Assembly: GCA_964408285.1 (NCBI GenBank)
Contig: CAYOYV010000006.1
Location: 31,635-95,634, forward strand
Reading direction: 5' to 3'
DNA length: 64,000 nt
From: an uncultured Nitrososphaerota archaeon
Lineage (GTDB): Archaea; Thermoproteota; EX4484-205; JAAOZO01
Part shown: one piece after another, positions 6,898 to 37,151 of the stretch
Numbering within the stretch: position 1 is the first letter of the stretch
Layout of the letters: every line of letters starts with the position of its first letter
Translations under genes and position numbers: made by a program
Notes under the pieces: generated by a model
What the model saw: the letters and a program-made list of their open reading frames with translations, nothing else
Database searches by the model: none
Told to the model about the DNA's origin: nothing

Positions 6898-7172
6898 TCT
6901 CTGTTGGAAGAATATGCAAGAAATTGGCAGGAAGAGATTCCGGGCAGAGGTGCGTGATCATCGACGTATTGGACACAAACTTCATAATGATTACTGGCCC
7001 AAAAAAGATCACAGGAGTCAGAAGGAGAAAGGTGAACATGAATCATGTCTTGCCGCTTGGGAAATCAATAAGAGTGAGGAAGAATGCCTCGGACGATGCA
7101 GTTGCCTCTGCGCTGGAGCGGAGGAAGCTAATACCATTCATGAAGGGTGAGGATGTTGAACCTGCTGAATGA
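6879..7172 (+). CDS. rpl14e: 50S ribosomal protein L14e
   Basis: VGRICKKLAGRDSG, ITGPKKITGVRRRKVNMNHV. Confidence 0.95.
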   Translation: MAQLALISVGRICKKLAGRDSGQRCVIIDVLDTNFIMITGPKKITGVRRRKVNMNHVLPLGKSIRVRKNASDDAVASALERRKLIPFMKGEDVEPAE

Positions 7173-8160
7173 GCTGAGAAAACCTAGGAGGCTTGTCATA
7201 AGGGAAGAGTCAACGACATCTTGGGATTATGGCTGGAACCCGAATCTAAGACGATTGGATCAATTGGTGGACTCTGGCGTAATAGTCCTTGACAAACAGA
7301 GCGGCCCCACCAGTCATGATTTTGTGGCAACCCTGAAGAGACTCCTGAATCTCAAAAAAGCCGGTCACAGCGGGACCCTTGAGTGAATTCGGGGAAATCC
7401 TGGCGTGACTGGAGTACTAATCGCGCTTTCCGGAGCAGCCACAAACCTGGTCCCATACTTGCATAGGCTAGGAAAGGAATATGTCGGAGTTGGGGAGCTG
7501 CATTCCGACGTATCAAAATCCAAACTTCAGGAAGCGATGGGTATATTCATAGGGCAGATATTCCAAAGACCCCCTGTTAGGGCTTCGGTCAGCAGGAAGT
7601 TAAGGACAAGATCTGTCTTCTACTTTGACCTTTTGGAATACGAGGATAGACGATTTCTTTTCAGGGTTGGAACGGAAGCAGGTACATACATAAGGAAATT
7701 GATACATGACCTTGGGCTGTTGACTGGATCGGGAGCTCATATGGTTCAGCTTCGAAGGACTAGGGACGGCCCCTTCGGCGAGTCTCAATCACATGGGATG
7801 TGGAGCATCGCCTTGGCCCTTGAGATATATAGATCACGAAATGATGAGACCGAGCTAAGGAAAGTAATACTACCGATAGAATCGGCAATTGCTCTATATC
7901 CATCGATTTATATCAAGGACGGTGCAGTTTCTGCAGTGTGTCATGGCGCTAATCTCTCGATTGGTGGCGTCTCGTCATTTGAGGAACCTGTGGAAAAGGG
8001 AAACGTTGTTTGCGTGAAAACTCTCAAGGGCGAGCTAGTGGCAATGGCCAGGTCAGAGAAGGATTCTCATGGTCTGCTAAATGACAGAACTGGTCTAGCT
8101 GCAATCACCGAGAGGGTTCTAATGGATAGAGGGCTATATCCAAAAATGTGGAGACAATAG
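7153..8160 (+). CDS. cbf5: H/ACA pseudouridine synthase Cbf5, spliced: join(7153..7381,7397..8160), 330 aa
   Basis: DKQSGPTSH, GHSGTL|DPGVTGVL restored by removing a 15-nt intron; EAGTYIRKL and a PUA domain follow. Confidence 0.95.
7382..7396 (+). other. 15-nt BHB intron in cbf5 mRNA
   Basis: Outer helix CGGGA/UCCUG, central helix CCCU/GGGG, bulges UGA and AAA; cutting after the second bulge nucleotides gives GAU (catalytic Asp); contains an in-frame UGA. Confidence 0.92.
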
Positions 8161-8203
8161 GCCTAGAGAAATCTTAATATCACTTGAGGTTTTGGAATTC
8201 CAC

Positions 8204-8334
8204 GCCGAGGTGCCGAGTTGTCAAACACGGCAGGTGCCCGAATCTGGCCAAGGGGCAATGGAGCCTAAGCCTGGAGTGTCGTAGATAGCTTGTGAACCTT
8301 CGGGTTCTTATGGGTTCGAATCCCTTCCTCGGCG
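8204..8334 (+). tRNA. tRNA-Ser(GGA) with three introns (about 6/7, 29/30, 37/38)
   Basis: Acceptor GCCGAGG/CCTCGGC plus G73, T-loop TTCGAAT, variable arm GAACC-TTCG-GGTTC, anticodon stem CAAGC/GCTTG with loop CT-GGA-GA after removing 8218-8233 (or 8210-8233), 8259-8268 and 8277-8286; 87-nt mature product; tRNA-Ser upstream of S13 is a known archaeal arrangement. Confidence 0.88.
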
Positions 8335-8536
8335 CCTCCTTCTCTCTGTTAGTTTATTTCGTGCCCCTTCAGTTGAGGCCCCCCAATAGCGTTCCAATTT
8401 GCCTCAGTTCAAGTGTTAGTCTTCCAGTTCTGCAGTGCTTTGTACATGAGAATTAGCTATTCGAGCTGCGACGTATTTCCAGTAATGGATTTGCTTTATA
8501 TCATCGCACGATGTTTTTTCTCGGAGGAGGATTCGA

Positions 8537-9520
8537 TTGACACCCCAAAGAGTCAACTTCGGGGTTGACATGGGCCCCTTCCTTGGACTCGAAAGAAGCT
8601 TCTCGTTCTTAGCTAAGGCCGCAATGGAAACGGAAGGTCTCGGTTTTGACTCAGTCTGGGTTCCGGACCACGAGGTCGATCCGCTCTCGACTCTGTCATT
8701 TCTCAGCTCAGTCACAAAGAACATGAAGTTGGGCACATGTGTACTGATACCAGACCATAGACATCCGGCTTTATTGGCTAGAGAGATAGCTACTCTGGAC
8801 AATCTCTCAGAAGGACGGTTGATTCTTGGACTCGGGGCTGGAGAAGGCAAGCAAATGTTCGGCACTCCGATTGACAGACCTGTTGCAAGGATGTTGGAGA
8901 CGATCACTATAATCAAGAAACTGTGGCAGCATCCGAAGGTGACGCACCACGGCGATTTCTGGGAAATAAGAGACCATTCCCTAGAGTGCAACCCGCTGCA
9001 GCGACCTCATCCCCCGATCTGGATTGGCGCAAGTGGACCGAGAATGCTCGAGATAACAGCGAGGCATGCAAATGGCTGCTTTGGCCCTCAGCTTATCCCA
9101 CAACAGTATCGAAATTGGTTGAACAGGCTGCACAGAATCGCGGGCGAAATCGGCAGAAACCCTGAAGAGATTATCCCGGCGCATTTGCCCTTCACAAGTA
9201 TTTCAAAGGATCATGACCTGGCAGTCAAATGGATCGAACCTTATGTGAGATGGTTCCTGGTATGGGCTTCTAAGCCTCCAAGCTCACTGCAGCAAATACT
9301 CGGTTACAAGGAAAGGTGGGAAAAAGAGGAAGATGTGCCGCGAGAAGCAATCGAGAGATGCTTCATTGTGGGAACACCAGAGGAGTGCACTGACAGAATA
9401 GAGGAATTTGTTCACAACGGCGCAAGCTACTTCGTGCTAGCGATTAGGGCTCCTGATGTAAAGAACTACTTGGAATCACTTGAGCTATATGCCAGAGAGG
9501 TATTGCCACACTTCAAGTAA
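8537..9520 (+). CDS. LLM-class flavin/F420-dependent oxidoreductase
   Basis: GFDSVWVPDH, ATLDNLSEGRLILGLGAG, PPIWIGASGPRML. Confidence 0.9.
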   Translation: MTPQRVNFGVDMGPFLGLERSFSFLAKAAMETEGLGFDSVWVPDHEVDPLSTLSFLSSVTKNMKLGTCVLIPDHRHPALLAREIATLDNLSEGRLILGLGAGEGKQMFGTPIDRPVARMLETITIIKKLWQHPKVTHHGDFWEIRDHSLECNPLQRPHPPIWIGASGPRMLEITARHANGCFGPQLIPQQYRNWLNRLHRIAGEIGRNPEEIIPAHLPFTSISKDHDLAVKWIEPYVRWFLVWASKPPSSLQQILGYKERWEKEEDVPREAIERCFIVGTPEECTDRIEEFVHNGASYFVLAIRAPDVKNYLESLELYAREVLPHFK

Positions 9521-9693
9521 CCCACAGCGCGGTGGGGGCGCGAAGACTCGGGGGACTCAGGTTCTGTTTGAGCTGCTTGCCATATGAACGCTAAATCATC
9601 GGATGAGGATCAGCGACGGATCCTTCATCCCCTGGGTCGCGACCGCGGAACTGGGACTGGCGGGATGAAGATCATGGGGGAACGGATAAGGTC

Positions 9694-10060
9694 AATGCCT
9701 TTTGGGGAGAAAGAGTGAAGGAAGAATTGAGCAAGGGGCATGTTCACTTCATAGCGTTTGATGGAAGAAAACCAGTTGATTTTTCAGCAACCCGGATAGA
9801 TAAAGCCTCTATCGAGAGAAGAGGGGTGAAGCTGGGGGCGCTCTGAGGCGGAGTGGCGGTGCTTCCAGAATTCAGGCGCAAATATGTTGTTTCCAGGCTT
9901 CTGACGGAAGCTCTAGTGTTCCTCAAGAGCATACGGTATGGAAAAAGCAATAGTCGGGACGTTCTGTTATCTAGAGTCGACTACACTTGGCATAGATCTC
10001 TATTTGTAATCCGGTGGTAGGATAACGACTGAGCTAGCGAGTTTGACGAAAACTACGTAG
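9694..10060 (+). pseudogene. GNAT acetyltransferase remnant
   Basis: Frame reads HFIAFDGRKPV...LGAL*GGVAVLPEFRRK...SRLLTEAL (motif A) with a stop at 9844, a later frameshift and another stop. Confidence 0.65.
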
Positions 10061-10133
10061 CTCTCCGTTTTTTGCCATCGCGGATGTAGCTACGTTCAGA
10101 ATCTTATATACGATTCGTACGTTCAGCCTATTA

Positions 10134-11525
10134 TTGCCGGAGAGGAAGGAATTAGCAATGTCGTCACGATCCTTCGAGGACATGACGCGGAAGGATTGGG
10201 TGATAGCAATCAGTGCGACGATGATAGTTGCACTTGCCTATGGCATAGTCCTGTTCAGATATCCCCTCGTATATGGCATCGATAGTCCATACTATTTGAT
10301 ACAAGTCAGGTCAATACTCCGGACGGGGATGATATCATATCCCGATCCCCCACTTTCATTCTATTTCTTCGCCCTATTGACAATGATCATCGGGGATTCA
10401 ATGGTTGCTGTGAAGTTAGGTACAGTGCTATTCTGCGCCCTGACGGTGATTCCTTCCTATCTGATTGGCAAGAGGATAAGTGGGAGCACTCCGGCTGCAA
10501 TAGCATCAGTTGTTGCTGCTTCGCTTTCGGCAGGTCTGATGGTAATGAGCGGACAGCTTCTGAAGAATACCCTTGGTGTATTCTTCCTGATGAGCTTTAT
10601 CTACCTGTGCCTTCGAATTCTGGAAGGAGACGAAAGCAAAACAACCAAAGGCGTGGCTATTGCTACATTCACGCTCACTGCACTGACTCATATACTAGAC
10701 CTAGGGCTGGCTCTGCTCTATCTGATGCTCCTCTCAATCGCATCTTTGGTTATGGGCAGCACCAGGAGGAAGTTCCTTCATTTTTCTGTGCCGTTCTTAG
10801 TTGGGTGTGTCATGATCGGAGGGCTCGCCTACTTCGTGTACGCAGGATACACGACAGATATAGGGAAGGGACTGATCTTTCTCCAGCAGTTCGTGGAGAA
10901 TCTTGAGAACAACGATGTGTCGATATTGGCGGTCACTGTCCCGTCAAGAGCAGTTTCCTATCTGAGCGCTGCAATGGGTGTGGTAGGAGTTGCCATATAC
11001 TACAGAAGAAAGAAGCCTGATGAGGCCGCGTTCATGGCTATATCGACGATGGTTATTGTACTGCTGAACCTTCCATTCGTTCCAGACCAATTCTCTATGA
11101 GATTCACGTTGATGTCCTTCGTACCAATGTCCTCGATAGTGGCGGGATTGGCTGGCCTTATAGGAAGAAAGGGATTTCAATGGGGAGCGGTGGTTCTATT
11201 TGTTCCTCTATTTCTCTTGACACAAACTATTCCGGTGTCTAGAAAGTTAGGACCCATGATATCACCAGAGGAATACAATGATCTTCTGGAAATGGCCAAT
11301 CTTATTCCTGAAGGAAGCAAGGTCATCGGAGGCAAGCCAGGAGCAGGATATTGGGTACTATACCTTCTAGATTCGGAGCAGTTCAAGCCATCGCCAGGCG
11401 AGATAATCGACTACCCGCTATACTTTGTCTCCGGTCCTGGGTGGAGGCCTGCACCACGGAATGCAATTTCAATCTACAGCGGAAACGCCCTCCACATGTA
11501 TGTGATTCCGCCAGCAAGACGCTAG
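10134..11525 (+). CDS. multi-pass membrane protein, probable GT-C (ArnT/PMT-like) glycosyltransferase
   Basis: About 11 TM segments, GIDSPYY...PDPPLSFY loop after TM1, soluble C-terminal domain. Confidence 0.55.
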   Translation: MPERKELAMSSRSFEDMTRKDWVIAISATMIVALAYGIVLFRYPLVYGIDSPYYLIQVRSILRTGMISYPDPPLSFYFFALLTMIIGDSMVAVKLGTVLFCALTVIPSYLIGKRISGSTPAAIASVVAASLSAGLMVMSGQLLKNTLGVFFLMSFIYLCLRILEGDESKTTKGVAIATFTLTALTHILDLGLALLYLMLLSIASLVMGSTRRKFLHFSVPFLVGCVMIGGLAYFVYAGYTTDIGKGLIFLQQFVENLENNDVSILAVTVPSRAVSYLSAAMGVVGVAIYYRRKKPDEAAFMAISTMVIVLLNLPFVPDQFSMRFTLMSFVPMSSIVAGLAGLIGRKGFQWGAVVLFVPLFLLTQTIPVSRKLGPMISPEEYNDLLEMANLIPEGSKVIGGKPGAGYWVLYLLDSEQFKPSPGEIIDYPLYFVSGPGWRPAPRNAISIYSGNALHMYVIPPARR

Positions 11526-11577
11526 TAGGTTGATCGCAGGCGAAAGCATCAATAAATGAATACGTAAAGACAACTGC

Positions 11578-11856
11578 GTGGCCTCGACCGTGAAGGCAAC
11601 TGCCTTGGTCTTCAGCGCCAGAAAGAAGGCGAACTGCTATGATTTTGCCCGAACCATGCTGGATGAAATGGAAAAAGAAGGAGTGGAAACGGAGCTAATT
11701 CGACTGTGTGATTACAGCATCAAGCCCTGCCAGAATTGTGACTACGAGTGCCTGGCGCGCATTGATCGCCCTGCCAGCAACAAAGAGCACGAGAAGTGTC
11801 CGATGAGAGATGATGTCGAATCCATTTGGCGCAAGGTATGGCTGTTTTTCATCTAG
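11578..11856 (+). pseudogene. truncated iron-sulfur flavoprotein/flavodoxin-family protein
   Basis: FSARKKANC, IKPCQNCDYEC...CPMRDD N-terminal half, then an early stop and degenerate downstream sequence. Confidence 0.7.
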
Positions 11857-12135
11857 GATCTCCCCCACATTTGACTATGTGCCCACTAGGCTACAGATAG
11901 ACGGAAATGGAGCAAGGTCGTATAATCAGGAAAGGCGGTAGTGGTCTTGGAAACCAGGAACAGGCGAAGCATACGGAACTTCTCTCGTATGTATTACATC
12001 CCCTAATGAAACAGGTTTCCCCAAATACCGCATGGGGCAACCTTCAATTCGCCCACTGGAATGGCAAGGGAGAGTCTGGGCTTAATTCGTTGAACGTTAA
12101 GTATTAATACGAGTCGACCTTTTCCTGCTGGTCGA

Positions 12136-12633
12136 ATGTCCGAGAAAAAGGAGTTCAGGGCCATAATAAGGATAGCAGGGACTGACTGTGACGGAGGTCT
12201 GAAGCTACCATATGGCCTAAGCAGGATAAAGGGAATTGGCAATAGCTTCGCCAATGCAATTATCCTATCCGCTGGCCTTTCTCCAGAAATGAGGCTAGGC
12301 TATCTCACTGATGATGAGGTCGCGAAGATCGAGGGAATAATGCATGACCCAACATCTCACGGCATTCCGGTCTGGTTATTGAATAAGAGATCCGATCAGA
12401 CGACTGGCAAGAGCGCACACGTTGTTGGATCGGATGTTGACATCAGCACAAGATCCGACGTGGAGTTGATGAAGAAGATTGCCTCTTGGAAGGGCATCAG
12501 ACATTCCCTTGGACTCAGGGTGAGAGGACAGAAAACAAAGACGAGCGGAAGGAAGGGAAGAGCGATAGGTGTAGTGAAGACAACTCTGTTTGCAGAGAGG
12601 GCAGCAATCGGAGAGCAAGCGGAGAAAAAATAG
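12136..12633 (+). CDS. rps13: 30S ribosomal protein S13
   Basis: IIRIAGTD, IKGIG, WKGIRHSLGLRVRGQKTKT. Confidence 0.97.
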   Translation: MSEKKEFRAIIRIAGTDCDGGLKLPYGLSRIKGIGNSFANAIILSAGLSPEMRLGYLTDDEVAKIEGIMHDPTSHGIPVWLLNKRSDQTTGKSAHVVGSDVDISTRSDVELMKKIASWKGIRHSLGLRVRGQKTKTSGRKGRAIGVVKTTLFAERAAIGEQAEKK

Positions 12634-12646
12634 CCGGTGACTTTGC

Positions 12647-13168
12647 ATGGGTTCTCCCCGAAGGATCAGAAGTTACCTGGTGGCACCTAGACAGCCATGG
12701 GTCAAGGAACGCATAGATCAGGAGCTTTCGCTCATAGGCGAATTCGGGCTGAGGTCAAAGAAGGAGCTCTACGCTGCGTCATCTATCTTGAGGAAAATGA
12801 GGGCCGCAGCACGTTCTTATCTGGCATTGCCCATCGAAGATAGGGCGTCAAGGGAAAGGGAATTGATCTCTCGTCTCCACAAATTGGGTCTCGTCGAGGA
12901 AAATGCCTCCTTGGATGACGTTCTATCATTGGACATCAGGGCAATACTGAGTAGGCGACTTCAGTCCATAGTCCGGGCAAAGGGTCTAGCTAACTCTCTT
13001 CATGAATCAAGACAGCTGATCGTTCATGGAATGATAAAGGTGGGAGGCAGGGTGGTCAAGAACCCGAGCAGGCTTGTGACGAGAACTGAGGACTCCGAAG
13101 TTACCTCTAAGAAGGGCCAGGCAAAAACAGGAGCCACTGGAACGGAGAGCAGTGGCGTTCAGTCATAG
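12647..13168 (+). CDS. rps4: 30S ribosomal protein S4
   Basis: PRQPW...FGLRSKKE, LSRRLQSIV, SRQLIVHG. Confidence 0.96.
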   Translation: MGSPRRIRSYLVAPRQPWVKERIDQELSLIGEFGLRSKKELYAASSILRKMRAAARSYLALPIEDRASRERELISRLHKLGLVEENASLDDVLSLDIRAILSRRLQSIVRAKGLANSLHESRQLIVHGMIKVGGRVVKNPSRLVTRTEDSEVTSKKGQAKTGATGTESSGVQS

Positions 13169-13243
13169 ACAAACGTGTCCCGACTGCTAATCTGGAAGGA
13201 CCCCAGTCATTTTTTCATCACATAGCACGTGCCATTCCTCTTG

Positions 13244-14107
13244 TCAGAATCTGGCGTCCGGTGCCACTTCGTATGAACTCCTAATCGCCTCCCAATAAGT
13301 CTGGGGTGTTCCTATGTCAAATCTGGTCTCGTCTTGCCTCAGTTTCACTGCATGTACATTGGTGCCGAGTTCAATCAACCTCTGTATCGCATCAGTCAAC
13401 TGCAATTCGCCATGTAGGCCGGGCCTGATCGCTTTCAGTTCCGAGAAAATCATGGGTTTGAAGACATACAACGGGACTACCGCGAGATTGCTTCTTGGAG
13501 CCTCTGGCTTTTCCACGGCAGAGACGACCTTGAGATGACCTGAATCGTCCGTTACCTCGACGACTCCATACTTCCTCGGATCCTCGACCTCCAATACGAC
13601 CAAGGAGGCTGAGTCATCGGTTGAATGATGAAGTTGCATCAGTCTCTTCACGAGGTCATTCTCCCTTGAGGATACGAATGTATCTCCCGCTGCCACCAAA
13701 AAGTCATCATCACCGACGAAATCCTTTGCCAAAAGAACTGCGTCTCCAAAACCTTTGGGAAAAGGTTGATTTATCCAGATGATACTCGATTTCTCGACTC
13801 TTTCATAGAAGGATTTCATCTCTTCGTGCAGTTCGGGCTTTCCAGAAGTCTGCAGGTAGGCTAGGAAATCATAGTCTGGAGTGAAGTGATCCTCTATTGC
13901 CCTCTTGCCGCGACCAACAATGAAGCAGAATTCAGCAAGCCCGCAAACGCATAGCTGCTCGAAAAGAGCCTGCAGAAGCGGCTTCAAAGTCATACCATTC
14001 TTTCCTGCAGAGAAGACAGGTAGCATTTCCTTGGGCAATTCCTTGCTCATTGGAAGCAGCCTCGTTCCCAGGCCGGCCGCGGTTATCACTGCCTTCCTGA
14101 TATGCAT
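13244..14107 (-). CDS. galU: UTP-glucose-1-phosphate uridylyltransferase-like sugar nucleotidyltransferase
   Basis: KAVITAAGLGTRLLP.SKELPKEMLP, AIEDHF, VEKP, ELQLTDAI. Confidence 0.85.
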   Translation of the reverse strand: MHIRKAVITAAGLGTRLLPMSKELPKEMLPVFSAGKNGMTLKPLLQALFEQLCVCGLAEFCFIVGRGKRAIEDHFTPDYDFLAYLQTSGKPELHEEMKSFYERVEKSSIIWINQPFPKGFGDAVLLAKDFVGDDDFLVAAGDTFVSSRENDLVKRLMQLHHSTDDSASLVVLEVEDPRKYGVVEVTDDSGHLKVVSAVEKPEAPRSNLAVVPLYVFKPMIFSELKAIRPGLHGELQLTDAIQRLIELGTNVHAVKLRQDETRFDIGTPQTYWEAIRSSYEVAPDARF

Positions 14108-14211
14108 ACCAATTGCTCCCTGCGTCTTCAACAAATTAAAAGGTTTGTTAGTGTGGTTTGACGATAGGTTTACATGAACCCAATTGCTTCAGCGGATGGG
14201 AAGACCTCAGA

Positions 14212-15294
14212 ATGAAACTGCTCGCCTCGGCCCCAGGCAGGATTTGTCTCTTCGGGGAGCACATGGATTGGTGTCGCAGGTCAGTCATACCGGTGGCCGT
14301 AGACATGAGGATCTTCATGTTATTGAAGGATGCGACTGGAGACATCGTTAGGGTTGATTCACATCCTCCCTTCACTCTCCACGATCAATTTGACCTACGC
14401 GATTTCGACCCAACGGGAGGAGATGACCTCAGATATGTCAGGGCTGTTTGCAGGGCGATGATGAATGCTGGTCATCGTTTGCCCGGCTGCAACATTAGGT
14501 TAGCTAAATGTGGTGAAGTTTCAAGATTGACTGGGGAGAAGGGCATTGTTGATCTTCCAGCGGGACGTGGTTTGTCGTCGAGTGCGGCAGTTTGTGTCGC
14601 AGCAGCCGGAGCTCTAGGAACACTCGCCAACGGGATTGTAGAAGAGAGAAAGGAATTCGTTCCTTTGACAAAGATTGCAGACATTGCCTATACTGCGGAA
14701 AGGAAGATCTTGGGCGTCAATTGTGGGCAAATGGACCAATATGCTTCCGCCTTGGGGAATGTTCTGTATATGGATTGCACCACTGAGCCGGCTACACCAA
14801 CATTCCTCCGGCCCAACACAATCCTTCCTTTGGTCATAGGAGATACTAAACAAAGCAAGGACACCCCAATGATATTGGCTTGGTTGGGGGAGAGATTCGC
14901 ACAAAGGGAGCGTCTCTTTATGGACGGGATGACGGAAATCGTAAGCATAGTTGAGGAGGCAAAACATGAATTGACAAAAGAGAACCCTGATCTGGAGCGA
15001 ATAGGCGAACTGATGAACCTCAATCAGCACTACCTGAAGGACTACCTAAGGGTTTCAGGAGACTGCCCCGTTTCGCCGAATGGGTTGGACCTCCTTATCG
15101 AGGTTTCTCTTTCCGCAGGAGCTTTGGGGGCAAAGCTCAGCGGTTCTGGGGGTGGAGGCGCGATGGTGGCGCTATGCAGACCTCAGGACGTAGATTCCGT
15201 TGCGGAGGCCATTAGGAAGAAAGGAGGAGAAGCCTTTGTGACTGTGGTTGCCAAGGAAGGACTATCTCTGAGGGACCTAACCTCTTGTGCCTAG
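14212..15294 (+). CDS. GHMP-family sugar kinase (galactokinase-like)
   Basis: SAPGRICLFGEHMD, PAGRGLSSSAA, CGQMDQYA, GAKLSGSGGGG. Confidence 0.85.
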   Translation: MKLLASAPGRICLFGEHMDWCRRSVIPVAVDMRIFMLLKDATGDIVRVDSHPPFTLHDQFDLRDFDPTGGDDLRYVRAVCRAMMNAGHRLPGCNIRLAKCGEVSRLTGEKGIVDLPAGRGLSSSAAVCVAAAGALGTLANGIVEERKEFVPLTKIADIAYTAERKILGVNCGQMDQYASALGNVLYMDCTTEPATPTFLRPNTILPLVIGDTKQSKDTPMILAWLGERFAQRERLFMDGMTEIVSIVEEAKHELTKENPDLERIGELMNLNQHYLKDYLRVSGDCPVSPNGLDLLIEVSLSAGALGAKLSGSGGGGAMVALCRPQDVDSVAEAIRKKGGEAFVTVVAKEGLSLRDLTSCA

Positions 15295-16228: not shown

Positions 16229-16289
16229 CACGGATTGGGAGTCCCTGAACAACCTAGAATGCGCCATTGCTTCTTTCATCCATCTCTGC

Positions 16290-17417: not shown

Positions 17418-17583
17418 CTGCTGTTGTGACTTATTTTTTCGTTTGTATTAAACTTATTGAATCGCGTTGGCCATCTCAAGTGCTTGCTTTGTTGCTCCTT
17501 TGAGCGACCAAGGCGATGGGATCCGTGGTGATTGTCGGCTCGGCGCATTCTTGAAGCCTGAGAGGTTTGTTAGAAGTTAAATA

Positions 17584-24628: not shown

Positions 24629-24665
24629 AATGTCCAGGGTCGATCTTCTTGTTGCCCTCTGGTTT

Positions 24666-27465: not shown

Positions 27466-27503
27466 GGGGATTGGCGAAGGATTGACCACCGGTTTAAAAA
27501 GCT

Positions 27504-28755: not shown

Positions 28756-29710
28756 CGTCAATCCTCCATTTGTGCAAAACGTTGGACGATCCAACTGGAA
28801 GGATCTGGTTAGAAAGGAATTGTTCCAGTCCGGCCCATGCGATCATCACACCGTTGTCCTGATAAAATCTCTCATCGTAGTCCAAGAACTTCGCTCCCCT
28901 CTCCTCACACATTATCCTGCACATCTCCCTCAGCCTCTTGTTCGCACCTACGCCTCCAGTAAGTGTGAGTTCCTCCTTTCCCAAGAACGCCATCGCCCTT
29001 TCGGACGCTTCCAGCAACATCGAGAAGCAGATCTCTTGTATTGAAAGCGCCAAGTCCTCAAGCGGTTCTTTTTCAAGAAGGGACTCTGCCATCGTGAGTA
29101 GACCTGAGAACGAAACATTCATTCCTTTGACAATGTAGGGCAGATCGATCAGCCTCCTTCCTTTTGTCGCAAGCTCCTCCAGCTTTGGCCCCCCCGGGAA
29201 TGCCAAGCCGACGTTCCTCGCAAAGGCGTCTAGGAGATTGCCCAAGGATATGTCCTCGGTCTCTCCAAATACAACATATCTCCCGTCGACCTCGGAGATC
29301 ACTTGGGTGTTGCCGCCCGAGAGGTACAGGAAGACGGGGTCCTTCGCTCCCCCGAGCTTCATGGCTATTTCGAGGTGTGCTAGACAGTGATTAACCCCGA
29401 CAAGTGGTTTCGAATGAGAGATTGCGATCGCCCTTGCCATTGTGGCACCCACTCTGAGGCATGGTCCCAAGCCAGGACCTTGGGAAAACGCAACCGCATC
29501 TATTTGGTCTAGAGATAGCCCCGATTCTCTCAGTGCCTCATTGATGACGTGAGGACCCACCGAATAGTGGTGTCTTGATGTTTCTCGAGGGTGAATCCCG
29601 CCCTTTTCTGGCTTGATGGTACTTCTTGAGTCCGCCAGTATCTTTGCATTTGAGTCTACAATGCCGATTCCGAACGTGTGAGCCGTTGACTCTATTCCGA
29701 GGGATATCAA
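28730..29710 (-). CDS. kae1: tRNA N6-threonylcarbamoyltransferase Kae1
   Basis: LGIESTAHT, GPGLGPCL, VNHCLAH, SGGNTQ, DNGVMIA. Confidence 0.97.
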   Translation of the reverse strand: MISLGIESTAHTFGIGIVDSNAKILADSRSTIKPEKGGIHPRETSRHHYSVGPHVINEALRESGLSLDQIDAVAFSQGPGLGPCLRVGATMARAIAISHSKPLVGVNHCLAHLEIAMKLGGAKDPVFLYLSGGNTQVISEVDGRYVVFGETEDISLGNLLDAFARNVGLAFPGGPKLEELATKGRRLIDLPYIVKGMNVSFSGLLTMAESLLEKEPLEDLALSIQEICFSMLLEASERAMAFLGKEELTLTGGVGANKRLREMCRIMCEERGAKFLDYDERFYQDNGVMIAWAGLEQFLSNQILPVGSSNVLHKWRIDDVKIPRRF

Positions 29711-29711
29711 C

Positions 29712-29885
29712 TCAGGCGAACTCGGTATAGTGACAGCGCCCGCAGTAATATCTCTGTTTGCCTTCTCCGTAGAAGCCCATGAACGAGCCGCATCTGGGGC
29801 ATCTCTTCCTCTTTGGCTTGAGCTGCTTTTTCCCCTGATCTACATCGTAATATCCCCAGACTCCCTTCTTCTCTTTCTCGCTCAT
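29712..29885 (-). CDS. rps27ae: 30S ribosomal protein S27ae (57 aa, below the ORF-track cutoff)
   Basis: Hand translation MSEKEKKGVWGYYDV...KRCPRCGSFMG...YCGRCHYTEFA; follows S24e. Confidence 0.93.
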   Translation of the reverse strand: MSEKEKKGVWGYYDVDQGKKQLKPKRKRCPRCGSFMGFYGEGKQRYYCGRCHYTEFA

Positions 29886-30241
29886 TTCTTGACACCAGCC
29901 TTCGCTGCCTTAGCTTCGACTTTCTTCTTCTTCATTTCTTCTATTGCCGCCTTCCTTGCCTGAGGTTCCATGTTCGCCAAGATCACATGTTTGGGCTCGG
30001 ATTTCCTCATCTCTTCCTCTGTCCCATAGATATGTGCCTCCCCTTCACTTGAATCGATCCCACTCTTTCCATGGATTCTCACCACCGCAACTCCATCGGG
30101 CTTGAAACCTCCGGCCGCAGCCAAGGCACTTCTAGTTTCCCAAATCGAAGGGGTAGGTTGCGAAGTCCGCCCGATCCTGAATCTGACCTTCTTCCTCCCC
30201 AGCAGCTTCATATCCGAAATGTCCAATATCCTAATCTCCAT
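29882..30241 (-). CDS. rps24e: 30S ribosomal protein S24e
   Basis: LLGRK, PTPS, GEAHIY...EPKHV; synteny. Confidence 0.9.
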   Translation of the reverse strand: MEIRILDISDMKLLGRKKVRFRIGRTSQPTPSIWETRSALAAAGGFKPDGVAVVRIHGKSGIDSSEGEAHIYGTEEEMRKSEPKHVILANMEPQARKAAIEEMKKKKVEAKAAKAGVKK

Positions 30242-30267
30242 GGCGCCCAGCCTCTTTCCACGGGAAA

Positions 30268-30837
30268 TTAAGGCTTTTGCCGAGAAGTGCGTGGTATCTG
30301 AGGGAATGACGCGAGAAGTTCTCGAATTCGCTTCTTGATCTCGGGTTGAATCCTTATCACGACCATTCCCTTGGCGGGTTGGCCATAGATCACCAGTGTG
30401 CCCTCTTCACTCACATCAATCGCAACGGCCGCAAGAAGATCCTCCTCTCCCTCGACGAGCACTAGGCTATTCGGACCCTCTGTCATGGCGGTCTTCAGCA
30501 CTGACCAAGCCGCTGTGTTGATGTGACCAGCCGGATTTCTCAGGAAGAATTTCCTCCGAAAGCGCTCTGTTTCGAAATCTGCTTTCTTCCTCTGTATCCT
30601 CAGATCGATTATCGCTGCCTGAAATGAAACCTCTCCTTTGATCAGAGTCTGAGTGACTACGTCGCCCACGCTGAAAGAGATCCCTTCTGAACTGCCCAAG
30701 TATCTCTCTCTAAGAATTCGAACTGCCTCCTCGGGCCTCGCCTCGACCAGATCTCCGAGGGGGGCAGAGAGGATTTCCCTCTGGGACGGAGTAGGACGTA
30801 GATAGGATTCGTCTGACTCAATGAGCCTTGATGGCAT
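30268..30837 (-). CDS. GTP-dependent dephospho-CoA kinase (DUF359)
   Basis: VGDVVT, NPAGHI, VEGEEDLLA, YGQPAKG. Confidence 0.9.
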   Translation of the reverse strand: MPSRLIESDESYLRPTPSQREILSAPLGDLVEARPEEAVRILRERYLGSSEGISFSVGDVVTQTLIKGEVSFQAAIIDLRIQRKKADFETERFRRKFFLRNPAGHINTAAWSVLKTAMTEGPNSLVLVEGEEDLLAAVAIDVSEEGTLVIYGQPAKGMVVIRIQPEIKKRIRELLASFPQIPRTSRQKP

Positions 30838-31003
30838 ATCGCCCTACCTTCTTGGCTCCTATCTGTCTTGCGATCGAAGAGCTCTCAGGATCGACCACAA
30901 AGACCACTCCGGACCAGTCGGTCGTGAAGCTGTTGGATCCGCAGTTCGGACAGGTCTGGTCATTCGTTATGAACTTACATTTCAGGCAGGCTTTTTCTCT
31001 CAA
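30818..31003 (-). CDS. spt4: transcription elongation factor Spt4
   Basis: ACLKC...CPNCGS...DWSG...GRYAIK. Confidence 0.95.
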   Translation of the reverse strand: MREKACLKCKFITNDQTCPNCGSNSFTTDWSGVVFVVDPESSSIARQIGAKKVGRYAIKAH

Positions 31004-31578
31004 GTTGTCTCACCTGCCTTCTCAGCAACAGCCAATTTCCTGAGGTCGTGATCGATCCATTCCGCCTTGCCCAAGAAGGGTTGCCTCGTTGTGACACCTA
31101 TCCTGTCGCCACCAGTAGCACCACCTATGGAGACGGCAGTCACTCTTAATCTGACCCAATCCCCGACTGAAAGTACCCTTGCGTTTTTCCTACCAGTCAA
31201 TACAGCCTGCGCCTTGTTGAAGTCCACATAATCATCCATAACGGAGCTGACATGTAGCAGAGCCTCGAAGGGACCTATCCTCACGAAAGCGCCATATTCT
31301 TCTATCTCGACGACCCTACCAAGCATGACCTCTTGTACCTCAGGAACAAACGTCAGAACCTTGAACTTCGCTTTGTGATATGATCCCCCATCGCCCGGGG
31401 CCAGTTTCCCCTTATAATCGAAATCGAAGGAGACCACCCCTGCGACAAAGCCCAGATCATCGAAGACCACTCCTTCATATTTCTCGACGAGGAGCGACCT
31501 TATTGCCTCCTCTATAGGCTTCCCGTATAGTTCGGGGGGAATCCTGACTATGTCCTCCAAAGTGATAAGCTTAAACAA
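31000..31578 (-). CDS. rpoE1: RNA polymerase subunit Rpo7 (RpoE1)
   Basis: VRIPP, GDGGSY, GAFVRIGP, TTRQPFLGK. Confidence 0.96.
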   Translation of the reverse strand: MFKLITLEDIVRIPPELYGKPIEEAIRSLLVEKYEGVVFDDLGFVAGVVSFDFDYKGKLAPGDGGSYHKAKFKVLTFVPEVQEVMLGRVVEIEEYGAFVRIGPFEALLHVSSVMDDYVDFNKAQAVLTGRKNARVLSVGDWVRLRVTAVSIGGATGGDRIGVTTRQPFLGKAEWIDHDLRKLAVAEKAGETT

Positions 31579-31663
31579 TTTCCCTAAACTCCGCCCTTTT
31601 CATCTGTTCTTATCTTTTTCCCTGAATGGAATCCGTTCCCGATCTAGGGCGCGAAATGACTTT

Positions 31664-32104
31664 TCAACATAAAGGCTTATTGTCAATCATTATTCTTTTT
31701 CCCTTTGAGACGAAGATGACAGTCATTCCCCTTTTCTTGAGCTTACTCCTTAGAGAGGAGTCGGCAGTGGCCACTGCTGCATCCAGTCGCTGTGCCAATT
31801 TGATTATACTCTCGTCCTCTGGCAGGCCTCTTTCAGATCTCAGGCTCCTCAGGTTCATGGCAAAATCCAAGGCCTTCCGTGAAGCAATGGCCAAAAGAGG
31901 TTTGTTTCCACCCTGGAGCTTCCTCAGCTCACTTATGGTGCCCTCCGTCACTACTAGTTCGTAGCGGCCCTCGAGAGCATGTTGAATTCCTTTCACGAAA
32001 TCCACGCGCTTCTGGAACGGGTATAGCAACGCACTCGTGTCCAGTATGACAGGTAGCTTCCTCGCTCTGCTCAAACTACTTTCCCGTATCCTATTAGCCT
32101 CCAT
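31664..32104 (-). CDS. PIN-domain protein (Utp24/Fcf1-like)
   Basis: VILDTSAL, VATAD..LR; conserved position between aIF2gamma and rpoE. Confidence 0.85.
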   Translation of the reverse strand: MEANRIRESSLSRARKLPVILDTSALLYPFQKRVDFVKGIQHALEGRYELVVTEGTISELRKLQGGNKPLLAIASRKALDFAMNLRSLRSERGLPEDESIIKLAQRLDAAVATADSSLRSKLKKRGMTVIFVSKGKRIMIDNKPLC

Positions 32105-33297
32105 CGCCTCTCGAAAAGCCTACTTACAGTTGCCCTCTGGCCAATCTGGGCAACTATCGGGATCTCCAGATTCAGTTCGGCTATCTTGCCCTTCTTCGAA
32201 GTGATAGTGCCCCTGCTTGTCCCAACTCCCACGTTCAGATTCAGCTTTTCTCCCACTGAAACTGGCTTGACCTCCTGAAGGCTTTCTGTCCCTAGCAGTT
32301 TTTCAAATAGCTCCAACTCAAGCCCGAGTGCCCTCACAACGGGAAGTGGATTGTCAGAAGGCGAGAGAATAGAACCAGAAAGCCTATCGTTCTTCGCAAG
32401 GGCTGGATCAAGAGACGTGCCGACTGCTATGAGCCCTCCTGCATTGGCCTCGTCCAATGAGGCACCATCGAACATAATGGAACCGACAGTGCTCTCCAAG
32501 AGCAGATTGGAGTAATTCGGACTCGTTCCCCTTAACCATCCCGGTGAGATGAGAATTCGATCCCCTAAGGAGAGTTTGCCACTTGTGATAGATCCCCCAA
32601 CGACCCCGCCATTTATCTGCTCCAATGGAACCCCAGGCCTGTTCACATTGAACGACCTTATGATTGGCATCCTAAGCTGGGCATTCGGATCCCTCTTTGG
32701 ATTCGGAAAATATTCCTCTAGGGCCCACATCAATATATCTATATTGAGACTTCTCTCGGCAGAAACCGGTATCACTGGGGACTGACCGTAACCTGCTTCA
32801 GAAAGAAATTGGGCTATCTGCTTCTGATTCTGGATCGCAGTTTCCCTGTCGACCAGGTCTACCTTGTTCTGAATGACCAGAATCTTCTCAAGGCCTAGGA
32901 CTTTGGCTGCATAGAGATGTTCCCTTGTCTGTGGTTGAGGACAGTCCTCATTTGCGGCTATTATAAGGAGTGCGCCGTCCATTATTGCGGCTCCACTGAG
33001 CATGGTCGTCATTAGCACTTCGTGGCCTGGGGCATCGATGAATGAGATGCTCCTGACGAACTCACATGTATGTCCTTTTGGGCAGGTTGCTCGCGTAAAG
33101 TAATTGTAAGGGGGATCGCAGGTGTTGCACTTGTACACCGACATCATCGCGTAACCGAGCTTTATCGTTATGTTCCGAGCAATCTCTTTGCTATATCTAC
33201 TCGTAAAGACTCCTGTCAGTGCTTTCACAAGGGAAGTCTTGCCGTGGTCGACATGGCCTAAGGTCCCTATGTTGATTTCTGGTTTTCTCAGCACCAA
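32071..33297 (-). CDS. eif2g: translation initiation factor aIF2 gamma subunit (start probably TTG 33297 or GTG 33294)
   Basis: GTLGHVDHGKT, ITIKLGY, DAPGHE, QPQTREH, NKVD, WRLIGYG. Confidence 0.96.
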   Translation of the reverse strand: MVLRKPEINIGTLGHVDHGKTSLVKALTGVFTSRYSKEIARNITIKLGYAMMSVYKCNTCDPPYNYFTRATCPKGHTCEFVRSISFIDAPGHEVLMTTMLSGAAIMDGALLIIAANEDCPQPQTREHLYAAKVLGLEKILVIQNKVDLVDRETAIQNQKQIAQFLSEAGYGQSPVIPVSAERSLNIDILMWALEEYFPNPKRDPNAQLRMPIIRSFNVNRPGVPLEQINGGVVGGSITSGKLSLGDRILISPGWLRGTSPNYSNLLLESTVGSIMFDGASLDEANAGGLIAVGTSLDPALAKNDRLSGSILSPSDNPLPVVRALGLELELFEKLLGTESLQEVKPVSVGEKLNLNVGVGTSRGTITSKKGKIAELNLEIPIVAQIGQRATVSRLFERRWRLIGYGKVV

Positions 33298-33319
33298 TTC
33301 GATGAAGCCCGTCTTCACT

Positions 33320-33336
33320 TATAGAAAAGCCTTATC
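33320..33336 (-). promoter_or_regulatory. putative promoter (BRE/TATA-like) of aIF2gamma
   Basis: GATAAGGCTTTTCTATA, 15/17 identical to 33801-33817; both lie about 25 nt upstream of a start codon. Confidence 0.55.
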
Positions 33337-33425
33337 GTAGGTGTCCGGCCTCACTCGATATCGTCTGACTGTTTTCCGTCCAACCTTTCAGGAATGGCCT
33401 AGCCCAGCGTGTGTGAATGAAGTAC

Positions 33426-33776
33426 CTATTCGATCTTGACTAGGTTCACTTGGCTGGTTTCTTCTGAGATTTGTTCTCCCCTTATCGTCGCCCGTATGAG
33501 TTCGCCCTTCTTGGCTCGCCTCGTTCCCGTTCCTCTCTTTAGCAGGATATGCCTCTTTGCCGGCCCATGAATTCCGCTCAGCATCGGAAGGCCCGATGTG
33601 TCTGATCCTCCTGTTATCTGAAGTCTCTCCCCGGGTCTCTTGATCGCAGAACCTTCTATTATGTCTCCTATCTTGCGTCCCAGAAGGGGTGTTGCGTCCG
33701 ATCCTTCCAACACCAGATTCTCCATTTTCCCCGTTTTCTTATCCACCACGATATCGACTTTCATTCTTGCCGGCAA
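33426..33776 (-). CDS. rps6e: 30S ribosomal protein S6e
   Basis: LLGRKIGD, LQITGGSDTSGLPM, IRG..IS....QVNL. Confidence 0.93.
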   Translation of the reverse strand: MPARMKVDIVVDKKTGKMENLVLEGSDATPLLGRKIGDIIEGSAIKRPGERLQITGGSDTSGLPMLSGIHGPAKRHILLKRGTGTRRAKKGELIRATIRGEQISEETSQVNLVKIE

Positions 33777-33800
33777 TTTTCGCCTGACGCCGTCGTTGGG

Positions 33801-33817
33801 TATAGAAAAGTCTTACC
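33801..33817 (-). promoter_or_regulatory. putative promoter (BRE/TATA-like) of rps6e
   Basis: GGTAAGACTTTTCTATA, 25 nt upstream of TTG 33776. Confidence 0.55.
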
Positions 33818-33943
33818 TCATACTGCACTGGTAGGTTGCCTTGGACGGGAGGCAAGGACTTATCTGCACCAGAGGAAAGACGCCTTTGAGCAAGCGATGT
33901 CCCGATCATTAATGCAACGGTTGAAGGCAGTGAGGCGATCTTC

Positions 33944-35311
33944 ATGAGCATACTGATTGTGGATTCGAGGAAGCAGCTCTTCATCGACGATCGCTTTATC
34001 CAGTCATCCCAAGGAGTCGTTTTGTCGGTTAACGAAGCACGGAAATACCAAGAACCGGTCCTCATCGCGGACCGCCCTTGGGAAAGCATGTGCATAGGCG
34101 GCTATAGCACAGTGATGGAGGAGAACGGACTTTACCGCCTGTGGTATGAGGCCTATGCTTCAGACTATAGGGAGGATTATGATGCGAAGCTATGCTATGC
34201 GTTTTCATACGATGGCATTCATTGGGAAAAACCTGCTCTAGGGCAATCTGAATTTCAAGGCTCAAGGGACAACAACATTGTGTTTGACGACTGCCATAAT
34301 TTCGGCTATCATGGCGGAACTGTGTTTAAGGATCCAATAGCCAGCCCTGAGGAAAGATACAAGGTCCTCTACCAAGCCAGGGGAGGAACGCGATCGGATC
34401 AATCCAACGCCTGCATGCGAGGAATATACTCGAAAGACGGAATAAGATGGGTCAAGTACCCAGGCATTCTTGCAGATCACCTAAGCGATACTCAGACTGT
34501 TGTTCACTATGACGAGGATTCAGGCAGATACGTTGGTTACTTCCGAGTCTGGACAGAGAAGGGATATCGTGCCATAGGTCGCTCTGAGACGCCAGATTTC
34601 CTTTGTTGGCCCAGAGACCCAGAATTGATCTTGGCCCCGGATCAAAATGACCCTACAGACATCCACCTATACACGAACGGTTACAGATCCTATCGCGTGG
34701 CCCAAGATGCACATATCTTTGTGATCTCCAGCTTCCATGCGACAACAGATCTCGTTGATGTTCAGCTTGCCACAAGCCGTGATGGTATTTCGTGGCGTAG
34801 ACCTGATCGCCGCCCCCTCATACGCCTTGGAGAGGAAGGGACTTGGGACAGCGGGCAGATCTATGTAGGTGCCGGAACCATAGATAAAGGCAGTGAGCTC
34901 TGGGTCTATTACACCGGATTCAGACATGGACACGGGGAGAACAGGCCGGATGTCATAAGTTACGAGGGAAAAATAGGAATAGCGAAAATTCGAAAGGACG
35001 GGTTCATGTCAGCCGAAGCTGGACCTCAGGGTGGCTTTGTCATGACCCCCCTCCTGAAGTTCTCCGGCAGCCATCTGGAATTGAATTACGATGCCGGAAC
35101 AGAAGGAGAGGTTTCGGTTGAGCTGCTTGGCGAGGATCTCATTCCCATCAGGGCTTTCTCAGGGCCCGATTGTGATCCGCTTCACGGTGATTCAACCACC
35201 AAGACTGTGACATGGAAAGGTAATGACGACTTGGGCCATATTGCCGGAAGACCCACGCACCTCCGCTTCAATATGAGAGATGCCAAGCTCTTCGCGTTCC
35301 ACTTCTTCTGA
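33944..35311 (+). CDS. probable five-bladed beta-propeller glycoside hydrolase-like protein
   Basis: QLFIDD N-terminus, repeated S.DG..W Asp-box-like motifs (SYDGIHW, SKDGIRW, SRDGISW), R.DGF and a beta-sandwich-like C-terminus. Confidence 0.6.
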   Translation: MSILIVDSRKQLFIDDRFIQSSQGVVLSVNEARKYQEPVLIADRPWESMCIGGYSTVMEENGLYRLWYEAYASDYREDYDAKLCYAFSYDGIHWEKPALGQSEFQGSRDNNIVFDDCHNFGYHGGTVFKDPIASPEERYKVLYQARGGTRSDQSNACMRGIYSKDGIRWVKYPGILADHLSDTQTVVHYDEDSGRYVGYFRVWTEKGYRAIGRSETPDFLCWPRDPELILAPDQNDPTDIHLYTNGYRSYRVAQDAHIFVISSFHATTDLVDVQLATSRDGISWRRPDRRPLIRLGEEGTWDSGQIYVGAGTIDKGSELWVYYTGFRHGHGENRPDVISYEGKIGIAKIRKDGFMSAEAGPQGGFVMTPLLKFSGSHLELNYDAGTEGEVSVELLGEDLIPIRAFSGPDCDPLHGDSTTKTVTWKGNDDLGHIAGRPTHLRFNMRDAKLFAFHFF

Positions 35312-35325
35312 TCTTGCGTGCGGAC

Positions 35326-37151
35326 TCACTTCAGGTATCCCCAATAGGGTTCCTTCTGTCTCTTTATCTTGGTTATTTCCTCGATGGCATCCAACATGTC
35401 TTGCGTGGCGAACTGGGACAGGTTCGTCTTTAGGGAAATCGCATCTGAAGCCCTGATCTCAACGTACAATGTCTCTCCTTCCTGCACATTTCTTCCCATG
35501 ACGGCCTCCTTAATGGATATCGACACCTCATCCCCCTTCTTTGCCTCATTGACCGACTGATCCTGCAGCCTTATGGAGTCAATAGCTCCTATTCTTTCGC
35601 CACCTTCACTAATCAAGTTGGAACCTTGTCGCATCAATCCCTTTTCAACCCTTACCCCGAATATGGCTGGTTTGCTCCTCCTAAAGACAAAGCCTGGCAT
35701 TATGAACAGCTTGGCGGGCGTGACCAACTTTGAGAAGAGCTCTTCAGCTGTAGCCTTCTCATAGCTAGTCTTCCAGGAGAAGTATTCATCCATCAGGCCG
35801 TATATGACCTTACCCGTCATTATCCTGACTCCCAAGTCTCTTGCCGCCTCCTCTGCCTCCCCTGTTACGTCTACGTTGAACGCAATTATCACCCTCTGAG
35901 TCATGTCTCCGGATGCCGTTGAGGCGCCAATGACATCCTTCTTGGTTACAGGACCTATATCCGCCATCCTCACCTTGATCGCCTTCGATTGAAGCTCAGG
36001 GACAATCGCCTCAAGCGCCCCCAACGTATCGGCCTTCAGGATTATGCCTTGGATTTCCGTCTTGAACAGGATGGAGGACACCTCTTGCGACAATTCCTCA
36101 ATTGCTCTTCTCTGTTCCTCCAAAGTATTGCAGACTATTACGCTTGAGCCAGCCAGTGCGCCGGCTAGATCTGGGCCACTCAACTTTATTCCGCTGGAGG
36201 CCCTCATCTGTGCAACTGAATCAAACCTGTCCCTGGGGTCGCGTATTTCATCCAATGGCTTAGGAGAAAGAAGGGCCCGAACCTTTGTGACCGTTGGTCC
36301 GGTTAACGTTGTGAGTGCGATGGAATCGCCCACCTTGATGATGCCGTCATATACGATGACGTTTATCGTTGTGCCCAACCCAACATCCTCCGTTACCTCG
36401 AGGACTACGCCCTTGCCCCTGTTCGACTTTGTCTCCAAGGATTTCGTTTGGAAGGACTGAATCATTCCCGACATGACCGCGATCAGTTCCGCGATTCCCT
36501 CTCCCGTCTTAGCGCTGACAGGGACAACTGGATTCTTATCCTTGAAATCACTCAGAGAATAGAACAAATCCGTAGTTAGGCCAAGCTTGGATACCTGCCC
36601 TACGATATCATACAGCTTCTGCTCGAGCAATTTTCTTGTACCTGGTTCCTGCTCCTTGATTGCCTTTAGGAATGAAAGAGAACTGGACGGACGCCAACCT
36701 CTCGTGAGATCAATCTTGTTTGCCGCAATGACGAAAGGAGTCTTTCTTGACCTGAGTATCTCAATAGACTCTATGGTCTGGGGCATGACACCGGCCGTGA
36801 TGTCTATTACAAGGATCGCAAAGTCTGCTATTGATCCCCCCCGTTTTCTCAAATTCATGAACGCTTCATGACCAGGTGTGTCAATTACCAATAGCCCCCC
36901 GATTTTCAGCCTTGAAGCCACTTCAATTCCCTCTATCTGGCCCACGACATCAACCAATGTGTCTAGTGGAAGATATGAGGCCCCAACGTGCTGGGTTTGG
37001 GACGGTTTCTACCGCTATCCCCCCGGCTTCCCTTTTGGCCACTAAGGTGCCTCTTATCTTATCCAGAAGGGACGTCTTGCCATGGTCCACATAGTCCCCA
37101 GACATGCAAGGTATGACCTAGAACCACGACTATGGGTTCCCTTAGGCGCAA
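35326..37151 (-). CDS. infB: translation initiation factor aIF5B (IF2), spliced: complement(join(35326..36996,37016..37090,37113..37151)), 594 aa
   Basis: TTG start with GGGGGGTGA SD; the splice product reads MRLREPIVVVLGH|VDHGKTSLLDKIRGTLVAKREAGGI|TQHVGAS...IDTPGHE...NKID; exons 39+75+1671 nt = 595 codons. Confidence 0.95.
36997..37015 (-). other. 19-nt BHB intron 2 of aIF5B (G2 motif, GGI|TQH)
   Basis: GCGGUAGAAACCGUCCCAA; central helix GGGA/UCCC, bulges UAG and AAA, intron helix CGGU/ACCG, exon helix GGG/CCC. Confidence 0.92.
37091..37112 (-). other. 22-nt BHB intron 1 of aIF5B (G1 P-loop, GH|VDHGKT)
   Basis: ACCUUGCAUGUCUGGGGACUAU; central helix GGUC/GACU, bulges AUA and AUG, intron helix CCU/GGG, exon helix UCUA/UGGA plus CGUGG/CCAUG. 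Confidence 0.9.

Follow-up and report, generated by a model that had tools for sequence, protein, structure and literature searches.

How does an archaeon make Cbf5 and aIF5B from genes whose reading frames are interrupted inside conserved motifs? This question is raised by a 64,000-nucleotide (nt) stretch of contig CAYOYV010000006.1 from an uncultured Nitrososphaerota archaeon, hereafter the window, in which cbf5 spans 7153-8160 on the + strand and aIF5B (archaeal IF-2) spans 37151-35326 on the - strand. An earlier note on this DNA had claimed six micro-introns with bulge-helix-bulge (BHB) motifs, one in cbf5, three in a tRNA-Ser gene and two in aIF5B. We located all six where they had been placed; they measure 10-22 nt, and the bulges AU/AU, AG/AG and AA/AA were as described. 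The two protein genes are composed as follows.

7153..7381, + strand: cbf5 exon 1, matching positions 4-69 of TIGR00425; its last base is the first of the catalytic Asp codon
7382..7396, + strand: cbf5 BHB intron, 15 nt, in frame with a stop; an insert is present here in 27 of 30 cbf5 loci
7397..8160, + strand: cbf5 exon 2, TIGR00425 71-322
37113..37151, - strand: aIF5B exon 1, 13 codons, TTG start; ends at the GH of the P-loop
37091..37112, - strand: aIF5B intron 1, 22 nt, strict BHB, frame-shifting; found in 6 of 30 loci, all in the window's family
37016..37090, - strand: aIF5B exon 2, 25 codons, TIGR00491 13-37
36997..37015, - strand: aIF5B intron 2, 19 nt, strict BHB, directly 5' of the conserved Thr in GGITQH
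35326..36996, - strand: aIF5B exon 3, TIGR00491 38-590

Excision at the predicted cuts gives back the conserved product for cbf5, aIF5B and the tRNA-Ser gene. The joined exons form open frames of 330 amino acids (cbf5) and 594 amino acids (aIF5B), and the exons abut in the family hidden Markov models, at positions 69 and 71 of TIGR00425 and 37 and 38 of TIGR00491. With its intron retained, cbf5 runs into a stop at codon 78, and in aIF5B retention of either intron leads to a stop, at codon 31 or 60. The cbf5 intron interrupts the catalytic Asp codon after its first base (G/AT). We defined a strict BHB as a 4/4 central helix with flanking helices summing to at least 4 base pairs (bp); such a motif occurs by chance 0.0012 times per cut register in the genes of this genome. 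All three coding introns have a central helix of 4/4, with an exon helix of 5, an intron helix of 1 and bulges UGA/AAA in cbf5, 4, 3 and AUA/AUG in aIF5B intron 1, and 3, 4 and UAG/AAA in aIF5B intron 2.

The best explanation, to which we assign a probability of about 0.92, is that the inserts are BHB micro-introns and that these pre-mRNAs, like pre-tRNAs, are cut by EndA and joined by RtcB. The pre-mRNA would fold into a 4-bp helix, to which exon and intron contribute half each, flanked by two 3-nt bulges; an (alpha-beta)2 EndA would cut after base 2 of each bulge, and RtcB would ligate the exons. The system that matures tRNAs would also make the mRNAs of at least five core genes, namely cbf5, aIF5B with two introns, aIF5A, pyrG and dnaG. 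In this scheme the introns occupy invariant motifs no further than about 80 codons into the gene, and selection would preserve the helix, limit the synonymous codons beside it and ensure a frameshift or a stop in the unspliced message. Because the unspliced message ends in this way, no protein with a broken active site would be made. The interrupted motifs are presumably P-loops, a switch Thr and a modified Lys; this bias of sites is partly built in, since detection favours conserved flanks. From the geometry, the gene content and the precedent of cbf5 we infer the action of EndA and RtcB; splicing in the window's own organism is likewise an inference.

We then investigated the enzymes. The window's genome (G000) is a metagenome-assembled genome (MAG) of 1.82 Mb that is 93.7% complete. 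Its assembly contains no 16S rRNA gene, and an aIF5B tree of 36 sequences places the window sequence within a clade of 25 (support 100/97) that includes a Ca. Brockarchaeota sequence. Two genes match PF01974. The product of the first (alpha) is closest to the EndA structures of S. tokodaii (2cv8) and A. pernix (3p1z) and aligns with them residue for residue throughout the catalytic region, with K-P-K aligned to their specificity loops. The second (beta) lacks the catalytic His and matches the beta model NF007085 weakly, under the model cut-off. The genome therefore has one catalytic and one structural gene, which is the two-separate-subunit arrangement of (alpha-beta)2 EndA, and K-P-K conforms to the crenarchaea-specific loop, Lys-Pro/Val-Lys/Arg. 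The accessible part of PMC12397907 ties this loop to a relaxed substrate range. An rtcB motif sits in a 494-codon frame of the same genome. These sequence features support a two-subunit EndA with a crenarchaeal-type loop, together with RtcB, and are in keeping with the broad-specificity EndA that had been predicted from the window alone.

To count the affected genes, we used a protein-to-DNA aligner that allowed any jump and was blind to the BHB motif. The queries for G000 were 677 proteins of a complete relative (G039) and 592 proteins of a second one (G012), the latter drawn from 1.19 Mb of its 2.2 Mb; they covered 860 of 1753 called genes, and 51 of the 85 in the window. With fair flanks, a strict BHB was found in 6 of 34 frame-breaking jumps (0.24 expected) and in 1 of 190 in-frame, stop-free inserts (1.85 expected). 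When the flank requirement was at its strictest, the proportions were 5/9 for frame-breaking and 1/39 for harmless in-frame inserts. The six strict cases are the window's three and the following three.

C1:204650-204628: pyrG BHB intron, 23 nt, from the motif-blind scan of G000
C14:36146-36128: aIF5A BHB intron, 19 nt, in G000, inside the codon for Lys in the GKHG motif
C15:5546-5526: dnaG BHB intron, 21 nt, with a stop, from the motif-blind scan of G000

We take the Lys of the GKHG motif to be the hypusine site. Each of the five interrupted genes has a single match per genome. The window holds two of the five because it is a translation cluster. Reverse runs on the references found introns in purA and an AmmeMemoRadiSam-like radical SAM gene of G039 (721 proteins) and in cbf5 and dnaG of G012 (1023 queries). 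The purA intron lies at 1051982-1052009 of G039. The intron of the radical SAM gene is a 23-nt BHB intron at G039:C1:1135054-1135032 (L101), just 5' of the CxxxCxxC motif; this gene is intact in G000. The earlier note had expected other broken core genes to be repairable by BHB excision, and this was borne out by pyrG, aIF5A and dnaG here and by purA and the radical SAM gene in relatives. Its wider suggestion of genome-wide splicing stood in that further genes are affected and failed in extent, as there are only six coding introns in five of the 860 testable genes. Splicing in G000 thus touches less than 1% of testable genes, a handful. The suggestion was to count as refuted if neither further genes nor spliced reads turned up; both additional genes and one spliced RNA contig did.

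More introns could be hidden in G000, as those shared with both references, those behind very short first exons and those in the 893 unreferenced genes. A scan for BHB geometry in 1222 of the 1269 alignments gave no new convincing intron; decoy geometry was not used as its control, since moving both cuts leaves the helix unchanged. A search for introns common to G039 had low sensitivity, being dominated by the gene-order signal and missing aIF5B, and rescue of N-termini gave no convincing case among the best 30. A reference-free scan returned 63 candidates, mostly chance joins between neighbouring genes, and regained 3 of the 6 known mRNA introns. We also noticed a textbook-looking BHB at G000:C3:34275-34297 within a seemingly intact ABC-transporter-like frame; it is probably due to chance, but EndA could cleave there with no splicing to follow. 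Among other translation genes, canonical EF-1alpha was not found in G000 and EF-2 is truncated by the end of contig C29, probably owing to assembly gaps. The best EF-1alpha-like match (G000:C4:98942-100436) is atypical in its first GTPase motif and may represent a CysN-like paralog.

RNA evidence comes from the relative G039, which encodes MCR and has, at the position of the window's aIF5B site 2, a strict BHB intron of 27 nt (134914-134940 in G039). Four sequencing runs (X1, X2, X7 and X10, of ten listed) were aligned to 16.6 kb of G039. A contig of RNA run X2 lacks 27 nt at L051:14914, which is the predicted cut, at a depth of 3135.8 of 3135.8. This is the sole indel listed for X2 in the 16.6 kb, the deleted form is the sole contig at the site and the conserved motif is restored in it. 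The probable-DNA run X1 retains the 27 nt, and the intron is present in both genomes of the genus (G039 and G032). The four registers from 14914 to 14917 all give one joined sequence. Judging by this one contig, the intron at aIF5B site 2 is probably spliced from RNA in a strain near G039.

We next compared the sites across relatives. The three cbf5 loci outside the 27 interrupted ones are two intact and one unreadable. Site 2 of aIF5B is interrupted in 10 of 30 loci, from four families of the order, G039 and G032. Intron-free aIF5B alleles exist within the order, in 14 of 15 family-f4 loci and in genus g3. In each of the 23 order members matched, the dnaG match starts late or contains a stop, which is the case for none of 14 other genomes; all ten dnaG junctions retrieved contain an insert. 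Of the genomes matched, 3 of 34 have a broken pyrG and 2 of 39 a broken aIF5A; the second aIF5A case comes from a distant family and has its break at the identical base. The purA gene is intact in G000 and interrupted in 10 of 10 relatives, which were picked for looking broken. Motifs of rnhB, hypD, uppS, rtcB and aIF2-gamma also run uninterrupted in G000, and a motif for ahcY had no match in any of three genomes. At aIF5B site 2, an exon-exon helix of at least 3 bp exists in 10 of 10 intron-bearing genes versus 5 of 20 intron-free ones. One cbf5 match, at G037:C11:292017-294362, is split in two within a 797-residue open frame, which probably represents an intein in Cbf5.

Metagenomes were searched for aIF5B site 2 with a pattern that left a free gap of 12-40 nt and required no helix. 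It matched at least 118 stretches, 80 of which were examined; 36 passed the aIF5B filter, giving 31 distinct sequences. Among the matches listed, all 31 inserts are frame-breaking, 28 have a 4/4 central helix and all 31 have at least 3/4. The 41 distinct other pattern matches listed include two clipped aIF5B loci with a strict BHB; none of the other 39 has one. Pooling relatives and metagenomes gave 97 distinct inserts of 11-41 nt at seven fixed sites, 90 of them with a complete central helix. Compensatory changes on both helix strands are seen at aIF5B site 2 (with three exon-side types), aIF5B site 1, aIF5A and cbf5. Insert lengths at aIF5B site 2 range from 16 to 37 nt and include all three length classes. 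No endonuclease open reading frame (ORF) was found in the intron loops of the 97 inserts, in searches that reached inserts of about 40-70 nt and did not seek longer forms.

Two sequence rules were examined in this set. The inserts had been described as sharing no obvious primary sequence, and we found that the 3' bulge starts with A in 95 of 97. The identical bulge dinucleotides, which the earlier note took as a possible hint of the insertion mechanism, are not supported as an insertion footprint, as they occur in 9 of 97 inserts versus 17.1 expected under shuffling (95% range 11-23). The second rule concerns stops. In the surveys not selected for breaks, all 23 inserts with a length divisible by three contain an in-frame stop (7.1 expected under letter shuffling), while the other two frames of these inserts have stops in 3 and 3 cases. 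Over all surveys the count is 32 of 32. Since the stop positions differ among inserts, the rule has been satisfied more than once.

Several points weigh against the splicing interpretation. The RNA support is one assembled contig from one run for one intron; the X2 strain differs from G039 by 24 letters in 3111, run X10 has 0 reads and run X7 has no depth at the aIF5B site. Strict-looking BHBs also occur by chance within intact genes (63 candidates, mostly false), and 7 of the 97 inserts have only 3/4 helix pairs. The genomes compared are kin rather than independent, so that the counts overstate significance. The stop rule may not hold universally across cbf5 introns, as frame-keeping cbf5 introns of 33-39 bp are named in PMC2738675 with no mention of stops in its accessible text.

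An addition to splicing, rather than a replacement for it, is the coupling proposed in the earlier note, in which the introns would form a regulatory gate and EndA and RtcB capacity would set how much Cbf5, DnaG, translation factors and nucleotide enzymes are made. The targets do belong to RNA, translation and nucleotide functions, every unspliced message runs into an early stop, and the interruptions of dnaG (23/23 order members matched) and cbf5 (27/30 loci) fit such a role. However, the introns of aIF5B site 2, aIF5A, pyrG and purA are patchy and missing from close kin, as tolerated passengers would be, the relative's RNA contig shows the spliced form only, and the need for conserved flanks favours the detection of core genes. 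We regard the gate as a possible but improbable extension. We are similarly sceptical of the broader idea that EndA-dependent mRNA splicing might be a regular layer of expression across uncultured Thermoproteota, with tRNA-type introns guarding active-site codons in translation factors and nucleotide enzymes, each making its unspliced message untranslatable, and with splicing capacity throttling the translation machinery.

A somewhat less probable alternative concerns the RNA. The 27-nt deletion would be a loss of the intron from the DNA of the X2 strain, or a skip of reverse transcriptase over the hairpin between the 3-nt repeats at the intron ends; the introns themselves could still be real. 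X2 is a slightly different strain, set against no DNA of the same sample, intron-free alleles are known in the order and the four registers yield the same joined sequence, all of which this alternative accommodates. On the other hand, G039, G032 and run X1 all have the intron, and a loss or skip would have had to produce the only contig at the site, with the motif restored, as the only indel listed in 16.6 kb. We consider splicing the better account of this contig and a loss or skip improbable.

Ribosomal recoding by frameshift, hop or read-through, with no RNA splicing, is very improbable. Recoding signals are frequently hairpins, and each of the inserts places a hairpin where the frame breaks; but a single site (aIF5B site 2) hosts all three length classes, the inserts split catalytic codons and fit the cut geometry of EndA exactly, and one of them is missing from RNA. 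The remaining idea, that these are pseudogenes or assembly errors with coincidental helices, could appeal to the incompleteness of the MAG, to the lack of a strict BHB in 28 of the 34 jumps that break the frame at the loose threshold and to the commonness of chance BHBs, but it is refuted by conservation and covariation between genomes, in which the same codon is interrupted in many independent genomes by inserts that differ in length and sequence and keep the helix, in single-match, otherwise intact genes, and the non-BHB jumps inspected are alignment noise at gene ends.

If the inserts are spliced introns, as we favour, they may persist because only exact removal is tolerated in invariant motifs, which we suggest by analogy with inteins. 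This view fits both the long retention of the cbf5 and dnaG introns and the clean intron-free alleles in close kin. They may have arisen either by reverse splicing, with a tRNA pool rich in introns as the source, or by decay of endonuclease-bearing introns.

We then rebuilt the tRNA-Ser gene between cbf5 and aIF5B, which contains the window's other three introns.

8174..8181, + strand: TATA-like box 5' of tRNA-Ser, read by eye
8204..8211, + strand: extra copy of the 8 nt that open the mature tRNA-Ser, seen in the sequence; not upstream of the three relatives' tRNAs compared
8212..8336, + strand: tRNA-Ser(GGA), four exons (8212-8217, 8234-8258, 8269-8276, 8287-8336); the rebuilt sequence agrees with relatives L130, L132 and L145
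8218..8233, + strand: tRNA intron 6/7, in the acceptor stem, 16 nt; central helix 4/4, bulges AG/AG, without an exon helix
8259..8268, + strand: tRNA intron 29/30, 10 nt; 4/4, AA/AA, central helix only; read by eye and from relatives
8277..8286, + strand: tRNA intron 37/38, the canonical site, 10 nt; central helix relaxed to 3/4

The central helix is thus 4/4 in five of the six window introns and 3/4 in one, the 29/30 intron being judged by eye. The 37/38 intron gains an exon helix of 6 after removal of the 29/30 intron. Over its first 39 nt the rebuilt tRNA is identical to that of L132, which carries only the 37/38 intron. The gene was missed by ARAGORN and by an Rfam search. A sigma-70 promoter scan, which does not cover archaeal promoters, found nothing upstream. 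The copy at 8204-8211 may be either a leader or the true 5' end, the latter if the first intron is 24 nt long (8210-8233); both readings yield an identical mature tRNA. As the 6/7 BHB folds, this copy could offer a pairing partner to the 3' acceptor strand. Another multi-intron tRNA, at G000:C11:44831-44970, has a near-copy of its 5' acceptor strand directly upstream. The rebuilt tRNA-Ser has a U-U mismatch in the T-stem (window positions 8210 and 8308; the mismatch lies near 8308) where relatives have G-C. In family f4, the tRNA-Ser genes L130, L133, L134 and L135 have longer 37/38 inserts of varied sequence, and L135 has an additional D-loop insert containing a repeated stretch. Genome-wide, ARAGORN made 21 tRNA calls and Rfam gave 18 matches; the tRNA-intron aligner was too loose for counting introns, and we claim no tRNA intron density.

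These findings bear on how genomes of these lineages are read. The genes aIF5B, aIF5A, pyrG and cbf5 are common archaeal marker genes. When interrupted, they are called truncated genes or pseudogenes that have lost a P-loop or hypusine site, and such miscalls can distort annotation, completeness scores and trees. As RNA data for the MCR-bearing relative exist, the question is directly testable.

How does this compare with known systems? BHB introns are known in cbf5 of Desulfurococcales and Sulfolobales, where they split the catalytic Asp codon at G/AT and measure 16-44 bp (Yokobori 2009, PMC2738675). From the portions of that paper available, the cbf5 introns here share the site and the (alpha-beta)2 type of EndA, and their 11-34 nt fall in one size class with the published range; judged by site and predicted shape, the window's cbf5 intron is a member of this crenarchaeal class. 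The differences are that the present lineage lies outside both orders and that four more protein genes are interrupted, one of them twice. The other archaeal case, Haloferax HVO_1309 (Schwarz 2020, PMC7714728), is likewise an mRNA intron processed by EndA, but it is located in the 5' untranslated region and the enzyme is alpha2, as far as the accessible text describes it. The same source and a 2023 review (PMC10485636) give, in the parts available, cbf5 and HVO_1309 as the two genes concerned, with more expected. Our literature search found no introns in aIF5B, aIF5A, pyrG, dnaG or purA, although subscription papers and supplements may hold some. Within these sources, archaeal mRNA splicing would extend past the one coding gene where it was previously known, cbf5, to six further sites among six gene families (aIF5B twice, aIF5A, pyrG, dnaG, purA; a radical SAM gene in one genome). 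According to the accessible text of PMC11291895, tRNAs of Thermoproteales and of Atabeyarchaeia/Freyarchaeia likewise have several short introns at non-canonical positions; the introns described there are those of tRNAs only. The homing-endonuclease BHB introns of archaeal rRNA, as presented in the available part of PMC2738675, similarly insert in invariant motifs, are patchy at a fixed site and are lost exactly. Unlike inteins and endonuclease-bearing rRNA introns, the introns here have no ORF-bearing form among inserts of up to about 40-70 nt. Insertion in invariant motifs, patchiness at a fixed site and exact loss are also features of inteins. In eukaryotes, short introns with lengths divisible by three reportedly contain stop codons that make unspliced messages untranslatable (a finding attributed to Jaillon and dated 2008). 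Our inserts likewise make the message untranslatable when unspliced, while the splicing machinery is different; we know of no nonsense-mediated decay in archaea. What the window and its relatives display is a known mechanism on a new scale, with several essential coding genes, an mRNA with two introns, a stop rule and the first RNA support.

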